A DNA stretch of 64,000 nt, from assembly GCF_013315695.1 (NCBI RefSeq), contig NZ_CP054353.1; one strand, written 5' to 3'. This stretch comes from Escherichia coli. GTDB taxonomy: Bacteria; Pseudomonadota; Gammaproteobacteria; Enterobacterales; Enterobacteriaceae. Positions 8,639 to 44,074 of this stretch are shown in pieces. Each line of letters starts with the position of its first letter. The stretch's first letter is position 1. The position numbers and the translations under genes were made by a program. A model generated the notes under the pieces. That model was given only the letters and a program-made list of their open reading frames with translations, was not told where the DNA came from and made no database searches.

Positions 8639-8726
8639 GGGAAACCCTGTCTGAAAGTTATAGTTAACCTACCCCATCCGTAGATGGGGGGATGTATGGG
8701 TACGTTGTAATTAGGGATTTAACGAA

Positions 8727-14085: not shown

Positions 14086-16647
14086 TTACACCAGACTCTT
14101 CAAGCGATAAATCCACTCCAGCGCCTGACGCGGAGTCAGTGAATCCGGGTCGAGGTTTTCCAGTGCCTCGACCGCAGGCGAAGTTTCTTCTGGTACGGAC
14201 AGCAAAGACATCTGCGTGCCATCCACTTGCGTAGCGGCGGCGTTCGGCGAAATGCTTTCCAGCTCACGCAGTTTTTGCCGTGCGCGCTTAATCACCTCTT
14301 TTGGCACGCCCGCCAGAGCAGCAACCGCCAGGCCGTAGCTTTTGCTCGCCGCGCCGTCCTGTACGCTGTGCATAAAGGCGATGGTGTCGCCGTGCTCCAG
14401 CGCATCGAGGTGCACGTTAGCCACGCCTTCCATTTTCTCCGGCAGTTGAGTCAGCTCGAAGTAATGGGTGGCAAACAACGTCAATGCCTTAATCTTATTC
14501 GCCAGATTTTCAGCGCACGCCCACGCCAGCGACAGACCATCGTAAGTGGACGTTCCACGCCCAATCTCATCCATCAACACCAGGCTGTACTCCGTGGCGT
14601 TATGCAGAATATTGGCGGTTTCGGTCATCTCCACCATAAAGGTTGAACGCCCGGATGCCAGATCGTCAGCCGCGCCCACACGGGTAAAGATACGGTCAAT
14701 CGGGCCAATCTCGACTTTTTGCGCCGGTACGTAGCTGCCGATATAGGCCATCAGCGCAATCAGTGCGGTCTGGCGCATATAGGTACTTTTACCGCCCATG
14801 TTCGGACCGGTGATGATCAACATGCGACGCTGCGGCGACAGGTTCAGCGGGTTAGCGATAAACGGCTCATTCAGTACCTGTTCAACTACCGGATGGCGAC
14901 CTTCGGTAATGCGAATACCCGGTTTATCAATGAAGGTCGGGCAGGTGTAGTTCAGGGTATAGGCCCGTTCCGCCAGGTTCACCAGTACGTCGAGTTCTGC
15001 CAGTGCGCTCGCGCTCTGTTGCAACGTTTCCAGATGCGGCAACAGCAGGTCGAACAACTCTTCATAAAGCTGTTTTTCCAGTGCCAGTGCTTTACCTTTC
15101 GAGGTGAGTACTTTGTCTTCATACTCTTTTAGCTCTGGAATAATGTAGCGTTCGGCGTTTTTCAGCGTCTGGCGACGCATATAGTTGATGGGTGCCAGAT
15201 GGCTTTGTCCACGGCTGATCTGAATGTAATAACCATGAACCGCGTTAAAGCCGACTTTCAGCGTGTCCAGGCCAGTACGTTCACGCTCGCGGACTTCCAG
15301 ACGCTCCAGATAATCGGTCGCGCCGTCAGCCAGCGCGCGCCACTCATCCAGCTCTTCGTTATAGCCCGGTGCGATAACACCACCGTCGCGTACCAGCACT
15401 GGCGGTGTGTCGATGATTGCTCGCTCCAGCAGATCGCGCAGCTCGGCAAACTCGCCCATTTTTTCACGCAGCGCCTGTACCGGAGCGCTATCGACATTTT
15501 CTAATAGTGCACGCAGCTCCGGCAGTTGCTGGAAAGCGTGACGCATACGGGCCAGATCGCGTGGGCGAGCAGTTCGTAAAGCCAGACGCGCCAGAATACG
15601 TTCCAGGTCGCCGACCTGACGCAGTACCGGCTGCAGCTCGGCGGTGAAATCCTGCAATGCGCCAATAGTTTGCTGGCGCTCAAGCAACACGCGGGTATCG
15701 CGCACTGGCATATGCAGCCAGCGTTTCAGCATACGGCTGCCCATCGGCGTGACGGTGCAGTCGAGCACAGAAGCCAGCGTATTTTCCGCACCACCCGCCA
15801 GATTCTGGGTGATTTCCAGGTTACGACGCGTCGCGGCATCCATAATGATGCTGTCCTGCTCACGTTCCATAGTGATAGAACGAATATGCGGCAGGGTCGT
15901 GCGTTGGGTATCTTTCGCATATTGCAACAGACAACCGGCGGCACAAAGTCCGCGCGGTGCGTTCTCGACGCCAAAACTGACCAGATCGCGAGTGCCAAAT
16001 TGCAGGTTTAACTGCTGGCGCGCGGTGTCGATTTCAAACTCCCACAGCGGGCGACGACGCAGGCCGCGGCGACCTTCAATCAGCGACATCTCGGCGAAAT
16101 CTTCCGCATACAGTAATTCCGCTGGATTCGTACGTTGCAGTTCTGCCGCCATCGTTTCGCGGTCCGCCGGTTCGCTCAGGCGAAAACGACCGGAACTGAT
16201 ATCCAGCGTTGCGTAGCCGAAACCTTTACTGTCCTGCCAGATAGCCGCCAGCAGGTTGTCCTGACGTTCCTGCAACAGTGCTTCATCGCTGATGGTGCCC
16301 GGCGTAACGATACGGACAACTTTGCGCTCGACCGGCCCTTTGCTGGTCGCTGGATCGCCAATTTGTTCGCAGATGGCAACGGACTCGCCCTGGTTCACCA
16401 GTTTGGCGAGGTAGTTTTCCACCGCATGGTAGGGAATCCCCGCCATCGGGATTGGCTCTCCCGCTGAAGCACCGCGTTTGGTCAGTGAAATATCCAGCAG
16501 TTGCGACGCCCGTTTTGCGTCGTCATAAAACAGTTCATAAAAGTCGCCCATCCGGTAAAACAGCAGGATCTCGGGATGCTGGGCTTTCAGCTTGAGATAT
16601 TGCTGCATCATGGGCGTATGGGCATCGAAATTTTCTATTGCACTCAT
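14086..16647 (-). CDS. mutS: DNA mismatch repair protein MutS
   Basis: 853 aa; Walker [10 protein letters not shown]; start [18 protein letters not shown]. Confidence 0.95.
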
Positions 16648-16894
16648 GGGGTTATGTCCGGTTCCCTGATATTAAATGGGGTGTGATGGTTTTTATTTTC
16701 GTTGTTATCACATAAGGCGCACATGATACCGGAGTTAATCATTTCAGGGGAAGAAGCGAACGGCGAGTTCTTGATGGTGATTCCGGGAAAGATGCTGTTT
16801 TGCAGCTTTTGCGTGATGCTTATGAAGCAAGTACGCAAAATTGCGTCGGTTGAATAAACCTCCTCCTTCAGAGCCATAGTCCCCTTTCAAATTA

Positions 16895-16917
16895 AGTTGT
16901 AATATAAATACACCTTA
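16895..16917. promoter_or_regulatory. Putative NsrR operator upstream of ygbA
   Basis: aagttgtaatataaatacacctt resembles the 11-1-11 NsrR inverted-repeat consensus; sits about 17 bp upstream of the ygbA ATG. Confidence 0.4.
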
Positions 16918-16933
16918 AGAGTATGGAGGCAGC

Positions 16934-17278
16934 ATGTCCGGCAAGCGTATCTCTCGTGAAAAACTGACGATTAAAAAAATGATCGATCTTTATCAAGCGA
17001 AATGCCCGCAGGCGTCAGCAGAGCCGGAGCATTACGAGGCGTTGTTTGCTTACGCGCAAAAGCGGCTGGATAAATGTGTGTTCGGCGAAGAGAAACCAGC
17101 CTGTAAGCAGTGTCCGGTGCACTGTTACCAGCCAGCAAAGCGTGAAGAGATGAAACAGATTATGCGTTGGGCCGGGCCGCGAATGCTGTGGCGTCATCCG
17201 ATCTTAACCGTGCGTCATCTCATCGATGACAAGCGTCCGGTGCCGGAGTTGCCAGAAAAATATCGTCCAAAGAAATAA
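16934..17278 (+). CDS. ygbA: conserved small Cys-rich protein YgbA
   Basis: 114 aa; ggagg RBS 6 nt upstream; position between mutS and fhlA. Confidence 0.8.
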   Translation: MSGKRISREKLTIKKMIDLYQAKCPQASAEPEHYEALFAYAQKRLDKCVFGEEKPACKQCPVHCYQPAKREEMKQIMRWAGPRMLWRHPILTVRHLIDDKRPVPELPEKYRPKK

Positions 17279-17282
17279 ATCT

Positions 17283-17305
17283 GCCGGAGAGCCATACTCT
17301 CCGGC
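17283..17305. terminator. Hairpin terminator between ygbA and the Mop gene
   Basis: gccggagag-ccata-ctctccggc (9-bp stem); a U-rich tract follows on the minus-strand transcript. Confidence 0.6.
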
Positions 17306-17316
17306 AAATAAGGCGT

Positions 17317-17745
17317 TTACGCTTTGGTGGCAATCAGGATGGCTGATGCTTTGATCAATGCAATAACGCGCGAGCCAGTGGTGAGTTTCATTTCATCCTG
17401 ACTTTCATTTGTTACCACTGCCACAATTTCAAAACCCGCATCCGTTTTGATATGGACAGTGGCGTTCACTGCGCCTTCGGTGATTGTCGACACGCTGCCA
17501 GCAAACTGGTTGCGAGCAGAGAATTTCAGTCCACAGTCTTCCGTTGCCAGTGTTACCCACGGGGCTTTAATCAGGGCAATCGCTTCTTTCCCTTTTGCCA
17601 GACCAAGAGCCTGCTGGCTGCTGTGTGTAACAATTGCCACCAGCTTTGCACCACCTGCCAGCGTCAGTTCTACTTCATCATTCACAGCGCCCATTGCTAC
17701 TGCGCTAACTGTTCCGGTTAATTGATTTCTTGCTGAAACTGCCAT
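17317..17745 (-). CDS. di-Mop (tandem TOBE) molybdate/molybdenum-pterin-binding protein
   Basis: 142 aa from the ATG at 17745, which has a perfect aaaggagg RBS 4 nt upstream; two ~70-aa halves each starting SARNQ(L/F)xG(T/S)VS; begins 44 bp after the fhlA stop. Confidence 0.75.
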   Translation of the reverse strand: MAVSARNQLTGTVSAVAMGAVNDEVELTLAGGAKLVAIVTHSSQQALGLAKGKEAIALIKAPWVTLATEDCGLKFSARNQFAGSVSTITEGAVNATVHIKTDAGFEIVAVVTNESQDEMKLTTGSRVIALIKASAILIATKA

Positions 17746-17789: not shown

Positions 17790-19868
17790 TTAAATCAATG
17801 CCGATTTATCAATTCCCAGTCGCTTCATCCGTGACAGCAGAGTCGTGCGTTTCAGCCCCAGACGTTGCGCAGCGCCTTTAGGCCCGGCAACCACGCCGTT
17901 TGTTTCTTTCAGCACGCGAACAATCAACTGATATTCATCTTCGCCCTCCTGGGCGACAACCGTTGCGGCAGGCGGCGTTTCAGGTTCTGGTAAAGCAATA
18001 TCTGGCAATGACAGCTGCAGCACGTTGCCGCGTGTTAGCAATACCGCGCGCTCGATGACGTTTTCCAGCTCACGCACGTTGCCCGGCCATTCCATGTTGC
18101 TCAGGATGCGCAGCGTCTCGGCAGGAATGCTGTCGATATTGCGCCCCAGACGACGGGCAATTTTGAAGGTAAAGGCTTTCGCCAGCAGCGGAATATCTTC
18201 CGGACGCTCGCGTAGTGGCGGCAGGTGGATCGGGAATACGTTCAGGCGGTAATAGAGATCACTACGGAACTCTCGGTCGGCGACCATTTTTTTCAGATCG
18301 CGGTTAGTCGCGGCAATTAAACGTACGTCCGTCTGAATGATTTTGTTGCTGCCGAGGCGTTCAAACTCCTGTTCCTGTAATACACGCAGCAACTTCGGCT
18401 GTAACTCCAGCGGCATATCGCCCACTTCGTCGAGGAACAGGGAGCTTTTATCCGCCAGTTCAAAACGACCAATGCGCTGGGCGCTGGCACCGGTAAAAGC
18501 CCCACGCTCATGACCAAACAGATCGCTCTCCAGCAATCCGGCAGGCATCGCCGCGCAGTTCATTTTTACCATGCGGCGATTATTACGCCCACTGAGATTA
18601 TGGATAGCACGGGCAATCAGCTCTTTACCCGTGCCAGTTTCACCGAGGATCAGCACGGTACTGTCACTTTGCGCCACCATTTCAACTTGTTTAAGCACGC
18701 TGTACATGGCTTCGCTGCGGCCAATAATCTCGCCAAATTCACTATCAACATTGTTGAGCTGCTCGGTCAGGGCGAGGTTTTCATCAACCAGCCGTTCTTT
18801 CAGACGATGGATTTCCTGATAGGCGAGGGCGTTATCGACAGCGATTGCCACACGTTCGGCAATCTGGCGCAGTAAATTCAGATTGGTAGTGGTAAACACT
18901 TTCTCTTCGCATTGCGCCAGTTTCAGCACGCCCAGCATGGTGTCGCCAGACATCAGCGGTAACAGGCACAAGGTTTGAATCTGGTTGCCCCAGGTGTCGA
19001 ACAACATGCGTTCATAGGGGGCTAAATCGTCCCGCTCGTGGAGATTAATCAACAGCATCTCTTTACTTTTGAAGACGCGTTCGGTGAGGGTTCCGGCTTC
19101 ATCGACTTCGCTCTGTTCGTGGGCGGGATGCTGTTTATCAAGATAGTGAGTGGAGTAGATGTTGAGTTTGTTTTTACGGTGGCTGCGTAAGACGATGCTG
19201 ATATCGTCAATGTCGAAGTAGTAATGGATTTCTTTGGCGACTTCGCTGACCAGTTCGTCCATATCCAGGCGGGAAAGCACCGCGTTGGTAATGGCAACCA
19301 GGATGCGGAAGTTATCGCGCTCCCGGCATAACAACTCATAGTCGACATTGTTAACGACGCGGCTCTGGATTTGTTCGGTGACGACCGAAACGATCTGCGT
19401 AAATGTTTGCAGACGATTGAACTCTTTTTCGCTCCAGGGGCGATCGTCATAACGAATAAATTCACAGCCACCAAAAATATGCCCTTCCGCCGCCAGTGGC
19501 ATCAGGCAATAGTGACCAAATTTGGGGTATAGTCCACCTGCGGCCAGCTGCGGCCAGGTTTCACAAAATTCTTCGTAACTGCAATGCAGCGTATCAGGGC
19601 GCGACAAAATGCTGCGTACCGGACCGTGTGCCAGAACAGTTTCGTCTTCATATTTAATGGGGGTGTCTTTTTCACGCGACGCGTAATAAGACGCACGTTG
19701 AGTCTGCGCTTGCCACAACACAATAGCCGCGTTGTCGGCGAGCGCAGAACGCTTTACCAGTTGCGAAAGAGCCTCACACAGCGAGGCCAGATCGGGCTGC
19801 TGCAATAGTGTCCGAGTGATGTCGAACAACCCTTGTTGTCCGAGATCACTCATCGGTGTATATGACAT
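17790..19868 (-). CDS. fhlA: formate hydrogenlyase transcriptional activator (sigma-54 enhancer-binding protein)
   Basis: 692 aa starting MSYTPMSDLGQQGLF; GAF domains, AAA+ core with GETGTGKE and GAFTGA, C-terminal HTH. Confidence 0.95.
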   Translation of the reverse strand: MSYTPMSDLGQQGLFDITRTLLQQPDLASLCEALSQLVKRSALADNAAIVLWQAQTQRASYYASREKDTPIKYEDETVLAHGPVRSILSRPDTLHCSYEEFCETWPQLAAGGLYPKFGHYCLMPLAAEGHIFGGCEFIRYDDRPWSEKEFNRLQTFTQIVSVVTEQIQSRVVNNVDYELLCRERDNFRILVAITNAVLSRLDMDELVSEVAKEIHYYFDIDDISIVLRSHRKNKLNIYSTHYLDKQHPAHEQSEVDEAGTLTERVFKSKEMLLINLHERDDLAPYERMLFDTWGNQIQTLCLLPLMSGDTMLGVLKLAQCEEKVFTTTNLNLLRQIAERVAIAVDNALAYQEIHRLKERLVDENLALTEQLNNVDSEFGEIIGRSEAMYSVLKQVEMVAQSDSTVLILGETGTGKELIARAIHNLSGRNNRRMVKMNCAAMPAGLLESDLFGHERGAFTGASAQRIGRFELADKSSLFLDEVGDMPLELQPKLLRVLQEQEFERLGSNKIIQTDVRLIAATNRDLKKMVADREFRSDLYYRLNVFPIHLPPLRERPEDIPLLAKAFTFKIARRLGRNIDSIPAETLRILSNMEWPGNVRELENVIERAVLLTRGNVLQLSLPDIALPEPETPPAATVVAQEGEDEYQLIVRVLKETNGVVAGPKGAAQRLGLKRTTLLSRMKRLGIDKSALI

Positions 19869-23770: not shown

Positions 23771-24232
23771 ATGACTATTTGGGAAATAAGCGAGAAAGCC
23801 GATTACATCGCACAGCGGCATCGTCGCCTACAGGACCAGTGGCACATCTACTGCAATTCGCTGGTTCAGGGGATCACGTTATCGAAAGCGCGCCTGCATC
23901 ACGCCATGAGCTGCGCGCCGGACAAAGAACTCTGTTTCGTCCTTTTTGAACATTTTCGCATTTACGTCACCCTGGCGGATGGCTTTAACAGCCACACCAT
24001 CGAGTATTACGTCGAAACAAAAGATGGCGAAGACAAACAGCGGATTGCGCAGGCGCAACTGAGCATTGACGGCATGATTGATGGCAAGGTCAACATCCGC
24101 GATCGCGAACAGGTTCTGGAACACTATCTCGAAAAAATCGCTGGCGTTTACGACAGCTTATATACCGCCATTGAAAACAATGTGCCGGTGAATTTAAGCC
24201 AACTGGTAAAGGGACAAAGCCCGGCAGCATGA
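23771..24232 (+). CDS. hycA: formate hydrogenlyase regulatory protein HycA
   Basis: 153 aa; first gene of the hyc operon, divergent from hypA. Confidence 0.9.
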   Translation: MTIWEISEKADYIAQRHRRLQDQWHIYCNSLVQGITLSKARLHHAMSCAPDKELCFVLFEHFRIYVTLADGFNSHTIEYYVETKDGEDKQRIAQAQLSIDGMIDGKVNIRDREQVLEHYLEKIAGVYDSLYTAIENNVPVNLSQLVKGQSPAA

Positions 24233-24356
24233 GCTGAGGCTTTGCCCGTTTTGCAGGCGTTACGCCTGTTTGGGGATGGGCGTGTCGATGAGTGTCGAAA
24301 ATGACATTTCATCGGCATGTTTTCGTCAAAAATGACAATCACCTGAGGAATGCCTG

Positions 24357-24968
24357 GTGAATCGTTTTGTAATTGCTGACTCCACGCTCTGTATCGGCTG
24401 CCACACTTGTGAGGCTGCCTGTTCAGAGACGCATCGCCAGCACGGCCTGCAATCAATGCCGCGCCTGAGAGTGATGCTAAATGAAAAAGAATCTGCGCCG
24501 CAGCTCTGCCACCACTGTGAAGATGCACCCTGCGCAACGGTCTGCCCGGTTAACGCCATCACTCGTGTTGATGGTGCTGTGCAGTTGAATGAAAGTCTGT
24601 GCGTAAGCTGCAAACTGTGTGGCATCGCCTGCCCGTTTGGCGCAATTGAATTTTCCGGCAGCCGTCCGCTGGATATTCCGGCAAACGCCAATACCCCGAA
24701 AGCGCCACCGGCACCGCCTGCTCCGGCGTGTGTCAGCACATTGCTTGACTGGGTGCCAGGTATTCGCGCGATCGCCGTCAAATGTGACCTTTGTAGCTTT
24801 GATGAACAAGGTCCGGCCTGCGTGCGGATGTGCCCGACTAAAGCCCTGCATCTGGTGGATAACACCGATATCGCCCGCGTCAGCAAACGTAAGCGTGAGC
24901 TGACTTTTAACACGGACTTTGGCGATCTCACCTTGTTTCAGCAGGCTCAAAGTGGAGAGGCTAAATGA
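24357..24968 (+). CDS. hycB: formate hydrogenlyase 4Fe-4S ferredoxin subunit HycB
   Basis: 203 aa; multiple CxxCxxCxxxCP motifs. Confidence 0.9.
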   Translation: MNRFVIADSTLCIGCHTCEAACSETHRQHGLQSMPRLRVMLNEKESAPQLCHHCEDAPCATVCPVNAITRVDGAVQLNESLCVSCKLCGIACPFGAIEFSGSRPLDIPANANTPKAPPAPPAPACVSTLLDWVPGIRAIAVKCDLCSFDEQGPACVRMCPTKALHLVDNTDIARVSKRKRELTFNTDFGDLTLFQQAQSGEAK

Positions 24969-39803: not shown

Positions 39804-40937
39804 CTACATCGGCAACGTTTTCAACAATCCAAACGCCTCTTTCATCCGATCCTCACTGACCACAAAGGCGCGAAGCTGGTCACCATCGTCAACACCGCGC
39901 GCCACCATTCCCTGGCGTTCGGTATTAATTTGCCAGCGTAAATCCTGACGCTGGGTTTCGCCTGCCAGATGTAGCGGTAATTCTGGCGTTTTGATTTTCA
40001 CCAGCATCGCCGGGAGTTTCAGCGGCGTGTTATTGCCGAGAAGATTTTTTGCCAGCACCATTGCGCTAAGTTGAATCGGCTGGAGGAACGGCAATACCTG
40101 ACCGTTAATTTCCGCGCAATCGCCCAGCGCATAAATATCGGCATTACTGGTTTGCAGATAGCTATCGACGCAAACGCCACGATTAATCGTCAGCCCGGCG
40201 CGTCGTGCCAGGGCTGTTTCCGGGCGCAGCCCGGTGGCGGCAATTACCGCATCCACTTCGATACTACGCTGGTGGTCCAGCGTTGCCAGAATGCCAGAAT
40301 CCGTTTTTTCCAGCCCCTGTAACTGAGATTTCAACAGCAGATGAACGCCCATCTCCGTCAACCGATGCTGCAAGCGGCTGCTTACTTCCGGTGGCATTAA
40401 CGACGCCAGAATACTGGCAGCGTTGTCGATTAGCGTGACCGCTTTGCCTGCACGACAAAAATCCATCGCCAGTTCGCTACCAATCAAACCACCGCCAACA
40501 ATCAACACGCGTCGGGCATCCCGCAGTTGCGTTTCACAGGCGCGATACTCTTGCTGACTATTTAACGTCAGCATTAACTCACGCCCAGGCACAGGCGGGA
40601 CAAAGGCACTGGCACCGGTTGCCAGTACTAGTTTGTCGTATTGCCACTGATTATTCTGGCTTTTCACCACACGGGCTTCGGCATCGATATCCGTCACCCA
40701 GGTTTGTGGAAACAGGTGCAGATTAAACTGCTCGGCAAATTCACCCGCCGTCTGGCGGGTAAGGTCGTCGGCACGTTGCCCCTGACTGATAACATGGCTG
40801 AGGTCAGGTTTGTTGTACTCATCCATGCTGTCGGCGGCAATCAGAGTTAATGGAATACTGGCGTCCTGTTTGCGAATATTTTTCACCAGTTGGCGGGCGG
40901 CGAAGCCCGAACCAATGATCACAATGCTGTTGCTCAT
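39804..40937 (-). CDS. norW: NADH:flavorubredoxin reductase
   Basis: 377 aa; FAD/NAD Rossmann motifs ([10 protein letters not shown]); overlaps norV stop. Confidence 0.9.
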
Positions 40938-42373
40938 TTTGCCTCCGATGCCAGTTCGTCAAAGACGTCTTTGCCGAGAGAGCATTCCGGGCACAGGAAG
41001 TTATCCGGGACTTCACTCCACGGCGTTCCTGGCGCAACGTCCTGCATTGGCTCACCTTTTGCCGGATCGTAAATCCACTGGCAGACGCTGCATTGCATCC
41101 GTGGGCCGAGGTCAGCCGTCGTGGCGGCAGAGGTTTCTTCTTTAACCACCGTATTCACCGTGCTCTGCGGCAGCGGCGCGAGCGCCCACTGACGGGCGAT
41201 TTCGCGACCGTGTTCACGACATAACTCCAGAGCGTCCTGGTCTGGTCGCCATTTGGCTTTCAGGCTAAGCGACATTTCGAAACCCGCATCCTGCAGGCGC
41301 GTGGAAAGACGATCCACCGCACCGCCGCTCCAGCCGTGAGAGCCGAAAGCACTAGCGCGTTTGTTACGGAAGCGTAATCCGGTCATCTCCTCCACCAGCC
41401 CGGCGATTTTCGGCATCATCACATTATTCATCGTAGAGGTGCCGACCAGCACGCCTTTTGAGCGGAAGACATTGGTCAGGATTTCGTTTTTATCGCTTCG
41501 GGCGACGTTGAAAATTTTCACCGCCACGCGTGGGTCGGTTTCCGCAATCCCCTGGGCGATAGCGTCAGCCATCATGCGGGTGTTATTCGACATGGTGTCG
41601 TAGAAAATGGTGATTCTGTCTTCCTGATAATCCGCCGCCCATTTCAGGTACAGCTCGACAATTTGCGTCGGGTTATCGCGCCATACCACGCCGTGAGAGG
41701 TCGCTATCATATCGACTGGCAAGTTAAAGCCTAGGATCTCGGTAATTTTCGGCGTTACCAGGCGGCTGAACGGCGTCAGGATATTGGCGTAGTAACGCTG
41801 GCACTGCTCGAAAAGCTCCGTCTGATCCACTTCATCGTTGAACAGATGCTCGTCGCAGTAGTGCTGACCGAAAGCATCGTTACTGAACAGCACCGCGTCG
41901 CCTGTCAGGTAAGTCATCATGCTGTCCGGCCAGTGCAGCATTGGCGTTTCGACAAAAATGAGCTGTTTGCCGTTGCCGATATCCAGCGTGTCGCCAGTTT
42001 TCACCACATTAAAATTCCACTCCGGATGATGGTGATGACCATTTATCGAGTCGATAGCGTTGGCAGTACAGTAGATCGGCGTATCGGGAATTTGCGCCAT
42101 CAGTTCGGTCAGCGCCCCGGCGTGGTCCTCTTCTGCATGGTTAATCACGATGTAATCGATATCCGCCAGATCGATTTCATTACGCAGGTTCTGCACAAAT
42201 TCGCGGCTGAATTTATGGTCAACGGTGTCGATCAGCACGTTTTTTTCTTCGCGGATGAGGTAGCTGTTGTAGCTGCTGCCGCGCAGCGTTTTATATTCTG
42301 TGCCGTGAAAATCACGCACTTCCCAGTCACGTTGACCAACCCAATGAATGTTATTTTTCACCACAATAGACAT
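40934..42373 (-). CDS. norV: anaerobic nitric oxide reductase flavorubredoxin
   Basis: 479 aa; metallo-beta-lactamase-like and flavodoxin domains; C-terminal rubredoxin CxxC...CPxC. Confidence 0.9.
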
Positions 42374-42420
42374 AGCAACCTCAATTTATTCAGCGTGTTC
42401 TAAAAAGATGTCTTGCTAAT

Positions 42421-42436
42421 TGCAGATTGCGTGCCA
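42421..42436 (-). promoter_or_regulatory. sigma-54 (-24/-12) promoter of norVW
   Basis: Minus strand reads TGGCACgcaatcTGCA (GG-N10-GC) just upstream of norV. Confidence 0.6.
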
Positions 42437-42491
42437 GTTTTTTATCTGATTGATTTTTATGTATAAATTAATTCATGCTCATTAATGAGTA

Positions 42492-42547
42492 GTCAAAATG
42501 ACTATTAATCAAATGGTCGATATGACAATATCTATAGTCAAATTGAC
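42492..42547. promoter_or_regulatory. Three NorR binding sites (GTCA-N3-TGAC) forming the norR/norV enhancer
   Basis: gtcaaaatgac (42492..42502), gtcgatatgac (42516..42526) and gtcaaattgac (42537..42547) in the divergent norR-norV intergenic region. Confidence 0.75.
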
Positions 42548-42559
42548 AGTGAGGCAAAG

Positions 42560-44074
42560 ATGAGTTTTTCCGTTGATGTGCTGGCGAATATCGCCATCGA
42601 ATTGCAGCGTGGGATTGGTCATCAGGATCGTTTTCAGCGCCTGATCACCACGCTGCGTCAGGTGCTGGAGTGCGATGCGTCTGCATTGCTACGTTACGAC
42701 TCGCGGCAGTTTATTCCGCTTGCCATCGACGGGCTGGCAAAGGATGTACTCGGTAGACGCTTTGCGCTGGAAGGGCATCCACGGCTGGAAGCGATTGCCC
42801 GCGCCGGGGACGTGGTGCGCTTTCCCGCAGACAGCGAATTGCCCGATCCCTATGACGGTTTGATTCCCGGGCAGGAGAGTCTGAAGGTTCACGCCTGCGT
42901 TGGTCTGCCATTGTTTGCCGGGCAAAACCTGATCGGCGCATTGACGCTCGACGGGATGCAGCCCGATCAGTTCGATGTTTTCAGCGACGAAGAGTTACGC
43001 CTGATTGCCGCGCTGGCGGCGGGAGCGTTAAGCAATGCGTTGCTGATTGAACAACTGGAAAGTCAGAATATGCTGCCGGGCGATGCCGCGCCGTTTGAAG
43101 CGCTGAAAGAGACGCAGATGATCGGCCTGTCGCCAGGCATGACGCAATTGAAAAAAGAGATTGAGATTGTGGCGGCGTCCGATCTCAACGTCCTGATTAG
43201 CGGTGAGACGGGAACCGGTAAGGAGCTGGTGGCGAAAGCGATTCATGAAGCCTCGCCAAGGGCGGTGAATCCGTTGGTCTATCTCAACTGTGCCGCACTG
43301 CCGGAAAGTGTGGCGGAAAGTGAGTTGTTCGGGCACGTGAAAGGGGCGTTTACTGGCGCTATCAGTAACCGCAGCGGGAAGTTTGAAATGGCGGATAACG
43401 GCACGCTGTTTCTGGATGAGATCGGCGAGTTGTCGTTGGCATTGCAGGCCAAGCTGCTGAGGGTGTTGCAGTATGGCGATATTCAGCGCGTTGGCGATGA
43501 CCGCAGTTTGCGGGTCGATGTGCGCGTGCTGGCGGCGACTAACCGCGACTTACGCGAAGAGGTGCTGGCAGGGCGATTCCGCGCCGATTTGTTTCATCGC
43601 CTGAGCGTGTTTCCACTTTCGGTGCCGCCGCTGCGTGAGCGGGGCGATGATGTCATTCTGCTGGCGGGGTATTTCTGCGAACAGTGCCGCCTGCGGTTGG
43701 GGCTTTCCCGCGTGGTGTTAAGTTCCGGGGCGCGGAATTTATTGCAACATTATAGTTTCCCGGGGAACGTGCGCGAACTGGAACATGCTATTCATCGGGC
43801 GGTAGTGCTGGCGAGAGCAACCCGCAGCGGCGATGAAGTGATTCTCGAGGCGCAACATTTTGCTTTTCCTGAGGTGACGTTGCCGCCGCGAGAAGCTGCG
43901 GCGGTGCCCGTTGTTAAGCAAAATCTGCGTGAAGCGACAGAAGCGTTCCAGCGTGAAACCATTCGCCAGGCACTGGCACAAAATCATCACAACTGGGCTG
44001 CCTGCGCGCGAATGCTGGAAACTGACGTCGCCAACCTGCATCGGCTGGCGAAACGTCTGGGATTGAAGGATTAA
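42560..44074 (+). CDS. norR: sigma-54-dependent NO-responsive regulator NorR
   Basis: 504 aa; GAF domain, AAA+ core ([14 protein letters not shown]), C-terminal HTH. Confidence 0.95.

Follow-up and report, generated by a model that had tools for sequence, protein, structure and literature searches.

Upstream of ygbA in Escherichia coli, the start codon is preceded by a short, imperfect inverted repeat that resembles the operators of the NO-sensing repressor NsrR, and the locus raises the question of whether NsrR controls ygbA through this element and how the element is fitted to the promoter. The stretch of DNA analysed here, 64,000 nucleotides of contig NZ_CP054353.1 and referred to throughout as the window, carries the 23-mer AAGTTGTAATATAAATACACCTT on its plus strand in the 286-nt intergenic region between mutS and ygbA, with 17 nt between its 3′ end and the ygbA ATG at 16934. 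The element consists of two 11-nt half-sites separated by a single base (AAGTTGTAATA-T-AAATACACCTT), and it is very probably the operator by which NsrR keeps the ygbA promoter off until NO is present. The 11-1-11 geometry and the AT-rich centre recognized in a preliminary description of this DNA are both seen in the 23-mer, while the position given there, 16895-16917, is shifted by +1 from the true place at 16894-16916. The coordinates of the operator, of the promoter elements and of the surrounding genes are collected in Table 1.

Table 1. Coordinates in the window of the probable ygbA operator, the associated promoter elements and the genes discussed.
Feature	Coordinates	Strand	Basis
Probable NsrR operator, 23 bp, 11-1-11 imperfect inverted repeat	16894..16916	+	PWM, published sites, orthologues
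Left (promoter-distal) half-site AAGTTGTAATA, weak, ~7 bits	16894..16904	+	half-site PWM score
Right (promoter-proximal) half-site, minus-strand reading AAGGTGTATTT, strong, ~14 bits	16906..16916	-	half-site PWM score
Putative sigma-70 -10 hexamer TAATAT, operator positions 7-12	16900..16905	+	comparative
Weak -35-like hexamer TAGTCC, 17 bp upstream of -10	16877..16882	+	conserved columns
Predicted transcription start A, 7 nt past -10 hexamer	16912	+	geometric inference from -10
Shine-Dalgarno GGAGG, 4 nt before ATG	16925..16929	+	sequence reading
ygbA, 114 aa	16934..17278	+	ORF; Pfam PF11756 YgbA_NO, E=4e-41; annotated in E. coli records
mutS	14086-16647	-	gene order
TOBE-domain gene, two TOBE repeats	17317-17745	-	Pfam PF03459
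fhlA	17790-19868	-	gene order
norW	39804-40937		
norV	40934-42373		
norR	42560-44074		

The symmetry of the 23-mer is incomplete, with 8 of 11 pairs self-complementary across the centre, and positions 9 and 11 of the left half-site do not follow the consensus AAGATGCATTT. Owing to this imperfection, a generic inverted-repeat finder (seed 6) missed the repeat at 16894-16916. Symmetry by itself was not accepted as evidence, since 90 positions of the window reach at least 8/11. In the mutS-ygbA intergenic region, the 23-mer is the only palindrome at this level.

The match to the NsrR motif was measured with a symmetric position weight matrix (PWM) built from the 16 distinct ChIP-seq-positive 11-1-11 sites of strain CFT073 (Table 4, PMC5320621), the ygbA site being excluded. 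By this matrix, the 23-mer fits the NsrR inverted-repeat consensus AANATGCATTT / gATGyAT-N5-ATrCATc, scoring 22.0 bits with a background of window composition and 20.7 bits with a uniform background, inside the range of 13.4-32.5 bits spanned by the training sites. It ranks first among the 63,978 positions of the window. The exact tail probability of 2.9e-8 per position corresponds to 0.002 expected matches per 64 kb and to about 8e-6 in the intergenic region; the chance expectation is about 0.15 per genome, and none of 200 windows simulated with a first-order Markov model equalled the score. PWM scoring had been named beforehand as the check to which the site should be put, and the poor score that it might have returned is not seen. 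AT-rich DNA nevertheless favours matches to an AT-rich motif, and the block upstream of ygbA could be read as a core promoter alone (-10, discriminator and start), its likeness to an NsrR site being incidental. With a background of 70% AT, the expectation becomes 0.07 per 64 kb, yet it stays at or below 3e-4 in the mutS-ygbA intergenic region, a figure that argues against such a coincidence.

The next matches to the PWM lie elsewhere in the window. The second-best, at 24299-24321 between hycA (23771-24232) and hycB (24357-24968), has the sequence AAATGACATTTCATCGGCATGTT, identical to the CFT073 11-1-11 site named ‘hycB’, which is NsrR ChIP-seq-positive (PMC5320621, Table 4) and is itself a training site of the PWM. 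Since it reaches only 12.0 bits when scored leave-one-out (0.5 expected per 64 kb), its standing comes from the published ChIP-seq and not from its sequence. The third-best, AAGTTATAGTTAACCTACCCCAT, is located at 8655-8677 in the ygbM-ygbN intergenic region, 17-39 nt upstream of the ygbN start (minus strand); its 12.9-13.8 bits, with about 0.3 expected per 64 kb, are compatible with chance. Between norV and norR (42374-42559), a match at 42417-42439 scores 11.6-11.9 bits with 0.65 expected per 64 kb and is not significant. The reverse complement of this match, AACTGGCACGCAATCTGCAATTA, is the sigma-54 -24/-12 promoter (TGGCAC-N5-CTGCA) upstream of norV, and its likeness to the NsrR motif looks incidental.

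The ygbA element recurs across the family. A protein-based search, unbiased for the operator, yielded 80 ygbA loci from about 25 enterobacterial genera, including Escherichia, Citrobacter, Salmonella (subspecies arizonae and diarizonae), Enterobacter, Klebsiella, Raoultella, Kluyvera, Lelliottia, Leclercia, Pluralibacter, Trabulsiella, Phytobacter, Hafnia, Rahnella and others, and at each locus the 200 nt upstream of the start codon were scored with the ygbA-free PWM. In 79 of the 80 loci, the best match, with at least 10 bits in each case, is separated from the ATG by 12-22 nt (mode 18). The median of the best upstream scores is 19.2 bits, and 65 of 80 loci attain 15 bits or more; in control 200-nt windows of the same loci, the median is about -3 bits and 10 bits is seldom exceeded. 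The 11-1-11 spacing is retained in every orthologue operator.

When the window and 79 orthologues are anchored on the operator (n = 80), columns 1, 2, 6-8, 11, 12, 15-19 and 21-23 are 80-100% conserved. In the left half, A1, A2, G6, T7 and A8 reach 97-100% across genera, and in the right half A15, T16, G17, C18, A19, C21, T22 and T23 are conserved at 80-100%. Over the 50 nt that precede the operator, the information is near zero, apart from Y/T/G columns at -17 to -15. Neutral positions have thus been randomized among genera and the operator has not, which places the operator under selection. The best-conserved feature of the block is its -10 signature, as a core promoter acting alone would predict; positions 15-23 (ATGCAnCTT), however, lie past the -10, belong to the 80-100% class and reproduce the NsrR half-site, which is not a requirement of a core promoter.

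Two local variations accompany this pattern. The sole degenerate operator, AAGAGGTAACATTCAAGCCTCTT, is found about 18 nt upstream of ygbA in the Enterobacteriaceae MAG UBA5654 (L075), where it scores 2.4 bits; the -10-like TAACAT is retained and the right-half ATGCA is gone, which may reflect a lineage-specific loss of NsrR control. Separately, a palindrome, GTCACCTTCGGGTGAT, is located about 15-35 nt upstream of the operator in L014, L016, L017, L022, L027, L061 and related loci. It belongs to several Citrobacter, Pseudocitrobacter and Intestinirhabdus ygbA promoters, overlaps the -35 region and is absent from Escherichia.

Inside the operator, positions 7-12 read TAnnAT in 80 of 80 anchored sequences (TATTAT, TAATAT, TAGAAT, TAAAAT). 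When every register between -20 and +24 of the operator is tried, a good -10 is obtained at register 7 alone, with a mean match to TATAAT of 4.9/6, and this is the sole register in which A2 and T6 occur in 100% of the sequences. Two of these bases stand apart from the NsrR motif: A11 (99%) occupies a column where NsrR favours T and the PWM gives A a frequency of 0.07, and T12 (100%) sits in the uninformative spacer. Their conservation is left unexplained by NsrR recognition, and with T7 and A8 they appear to compose the TAnnAT of a -10 element. Further upstream, the conserved columns, counted from the operator, are -17 (Y), -16 (T) and -15 (G, 93%), a YTG that coincides with the first three bases of a -35 at a 17-bp spacer. 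The remainder of the -35 is poor, the window hexamer matching TTGACA at 3/6 and the anchored set at a mean of 2.9/6; for this reason, a consensus promoter scan of 16600-17400 returned no sigma-70 promoter at threshold.

The predicted start falls on operator position 19, which follows C18 and holds an A in 78 of the 80 anchored sequences, so that the operator would span about -18 to +5 of the putative promoter. In the accessible portions of the Cappable-seq, SMRT-Cappable-seq and ROSE supplements, there is no entry or matching coordinate for a ygbA start site. The overlap with the -10 region proposed in the preliminary description agrees with the TAnnAT of all 80 anchored sequences and with the YTG 17 bp upstream, as far as comparison of sequences can indicate. 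An Rfam scan of 16500-17400 gave no match at E<=1, and therefore no known RNA element competes with the operator reading.

The hexamer embedded at positions 7-12 accounts for the imbalance between the two half-sites, the left one being weakened by the -10 bases at positions 9 and 11. The same imbalance, a left half with about half the bits of the right, would also be expected if NsrR recognized only the strong right half, as one 11-bp motif, and if the left ‘half’ were simply the -10 region. Outside the -10, however, A1 (97%), A2 (100%) and G6 (99%) are conserved over the approximately 25 genera and fit the half-site AAnnTG, and the 11-1-11 spacing is constant among the orthologues; use of the right half alone is accordingly regarded as quite improbable, and the full 11-1-11 repeat is retained as the operator.

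The ygbA operator of NsrR is already known, and the published sites coincide with the one in the window. Among the sites tabulated in the supplement of Rodionov et al. 2005 is an E. coli ygbA site at -37, GATGtAaTaTAAATaCATC; it equals the 19-bp core of the allele present in K-12, AAGATGTAATATAAATACATCTT (from NC_000913.3). Mehta et al. 2015 give the CFT073 site in their Table 4 as AAGGTGCATTTATATTACAACTT (PMC5320621), from which the reverse complement of the window site, AAGGTGTATTTATATTACAACTT, is one base off. Regulation of ygbA by NsrR in K-12 was reported by Bodenmiller & Spiro 2006, and binding of NsrR to the ygbA promoter in K-12 ChIP-chip by Partridge et al. 2009, both as cited by PMC5320621. 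In a Salmonella Typhimurium nsrR mutant, ygbA mRNA rises 31.8-fold by qRT-PCR (PMC2884951). In the macrophage vacuole, ygbA is highly transcribed (PMC7232297). In nitrate-grown CFT073, the gene ranks among those most strongly induced. The statement that ygbA had been reported as NsrR-regulated is thus borne out by the K-12 reports as relayed in PMC5320621, by the Salmonella mutant and by the Rodionov site. The regulator itself is nearly universal: of 5,426 complete E. coli genomes, 5,425 carry nsrR, a gene that lies outside the window.

NsrR ChIP-seq in CFT073 shows no peak at ygbA, which the authors judged a false negative (PMC5320621). Such a negative would suit a core promoter whose NsrR likeness is accidental; against it stand the derepression in the nsrR mutant and the K-12 ChIP-chip binding, the latter as reported through PMC5320621, and with the conservation past the -10 and the low chance expectation this explanation is hardly credible. 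A different protein might also read the palindrome, for example the Rrf2 protein IscR or Fur, a binder of AT-rich boxes, given that Rrf2 regulators bind pseudo-palindromes of similar length (PMC9338935) and that ygbA adjoins the metal-regulated sitABCD in Salmonella and Citrobacter. The 23-mer, however, fits a matrix whose training sites come from NsrR ChIP-seq peaks, and what has been published points specifically to NsrR, leaving another reader of the palindrome with very little probability. To our knowledge, neither the IscR nor the Fur consensus aligns well with the ygbA 23-mer. NsrR is therefore kept as the regulator in what follows.

The arrangement suggests how repression would operate. 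NsrR, an Rrf2-family iron-sulfur repressor that senses NO, would bind the 11-1-11 repeat as a dimer, and the bound protein would cover the -10 together with the start point near 16912, thereby keeping RNA polymerase from the ygbA promoter. Damage of the cluster by NO would then release NsrR from the DNA and allow ygbA to be transcribed. Two signals would share one element: bases 1 and 2 of the -10 may serve also as the Y-A of the half-site read by NsrR, and bases 3-6 would fall in the centre of the operator, a part that is free of direct base contacts in the crystal structure of ScNsrR with DNA. In the 23-bp ScNsrR operator, the central 7 bp lack such contacts, and mutating them leaves the affinity unchanged (PMC9338935). 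We infer the start site, the occlusion mode and the equivalence of the window allele to the tested alleles. The NO-responsive control of ygbA by NsrR put forward in the preliminary description is supported by motif, position, conservation and published regulation.

Within E. coli, the operator varies little. Five sequences give four alleles, which differ only at positions 4, 17 and 20: that of the window (AAGTTGTAATATAAATACACCTT), that of K-12 (AAGATGTAATATAAATACATCTT), that of SI-NP020 (AAGATGTAATATAAATGCATCTT) and that of Nissle 1917, O25:H4 and CFT073 (AAGTTGTAATATAAATGCACCTT). The three variable positions carry little information (0.51 bits on average, compared with 0.86 bits at the others), and all four alleles score 20.7-22.4 bits. 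An 81-bp promoter of the window type matches 2,538 of the 5,426 genomes (1,289 identical), and one of the K-12 type matches 2,297 of 5,426 (1,055 identical). In the window, T4 together with C20 removes the ‘A’ of the AANATG consensus from both half-sites, and this haplotype could lower NsrR occupancy on an operator that the embedded -10 has already weakened in its left half. If so, the weakness of T4/C20 would explain the absent CFT073 ChIP-seq peak at ygbA, and basal ygbA expression would differ between the two major promoter haplotype families of E. coli. We consider a lower affinity unlikely, because positions 4 and 20 vary freely among genera.

The gene downstream of the operator is well preserved. 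YgbA, a small cysteine-rich protein that is strongly induced in macrophages, is identical to K-12 YgbA at 113 of its 114 residues. An 801-nt query around the site finds a match in 5,419 of the 5,426 complete E. coli genomes; for strain MS 21-1 and two others, the identity is 100%. At the 3′ end of ygbA (17276-17310), divergence from K-12 starts exactly at the stop codon (YgbA has 114 aa here and 117 aa in K-12), and the TOBE gene between ygbA and fhlA is absent from K-12. A GC-rich hairpin of 14 bp, GCCGGAGAG...CTCTCCGGC, occupies 17279-17309, where ygbA and the TOBE gene converge; its T-run lies on the minus strand, so that it is probably the terminator of the TOBE gene, although it may act both ways. 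At the corresponding spot, K-12 carries another hairpin. In the window, fhlA is intact, with 692 aa from the ATG. A frameshifted fhlA was considered and belongs to the MS 21-1 record, where the gene is annotated as a pseudogene; the window differs from that record by 5 SNPs and by an indel of about 10 nt in fhlA, near window position 19548.

Beyond fhlA, the gene order continues with hypE to hypA and then hycA to hycI. The placement of ygbA between the nor locus and mutS, to which the preliminary description had drawn attention, is true as gene order and carries no weight for the regulation, since the nor genes lie about 23 kb and roughly 22 genes away, with hyp, hyc, asc, hydN and hypF in between. 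On the other side, just upstream of the ygbA promoter, some PGAP E. coli records annotate a 44-aa ‘hypothetical protein’ at 16723-16857 (+). This ORF has no Pfam match, is unannotated in K-12 and Nissle, bears a 1-nt deletion near its 3′ end in Nissle and O25:H4, and is probably not a real gene. The mutS-ygbA intergenic region also contains a perfect 8-bp inverted repeat, TTTTGCGT / ACGCAAAA, at 16807-16814 / 16833-16840 with an 18-nt loop. Its second arm is altered in Nissle and O25:H4, and the repeat is therefore not conserved within the species.

In conclusion, ygbA in the window strain very probably remains under NsrR control and responsive to NO, as described for K-12 and Salmonella, which for this strain means little beyond a correct annotation. 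To the known site are added a footprint across about 25 genera, in which the operator and a putative -10 hexamer are written in the same bases, and a catalogue of natural E. coli alleles, whose variation is confined to the degenerate positions of the motif.

Compared with known systems, the window operator is closest to the ygbA operators of other E. coli strains. The K-12 site has the same locus, position relative to the start codon and 23-bp frame, with 21 of 23 bases identical; it differs in carrying A4/T20, where the window has T4/C20, and in scoring 21.5 bits against 20.7 bits for the window. The CFT073 site shares 22 of 23 bases and the T4/C20 haplotype, and differs in G17 where the window has A17, that is, C in place of the window T at the degenerate Y of the right half. 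The operators of ytfE, hmp and hcp have the same 11-1-11 organization and the same AAGATGCATTT-type half-sites, and they likewise lie in promoter regions of genes induced by NO. The ytfE operator, however, is a near-perfect palindrome of 32.5 bits, and relative to these three the ygbA site is asymmetric because its TAnnAT, the likely -10 hexamer, fills positions 7-12. A more distant comparison is offered by [4Fe-4S]-NsrR of S. coelicolor on the hmpA1 operator. That protein recognizes another sequence, differs in several DNA-contacting residues and leaves E. coli NsrR sites unbound, whereas the 23-bp length of the operator, the dimer and the winged helix-turn-helix are the same (PMC9338935). 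By analogy, the unread centre of the ScNsrR operator would be compatible with a -10 hexamer written at that place in the ygbA operator.
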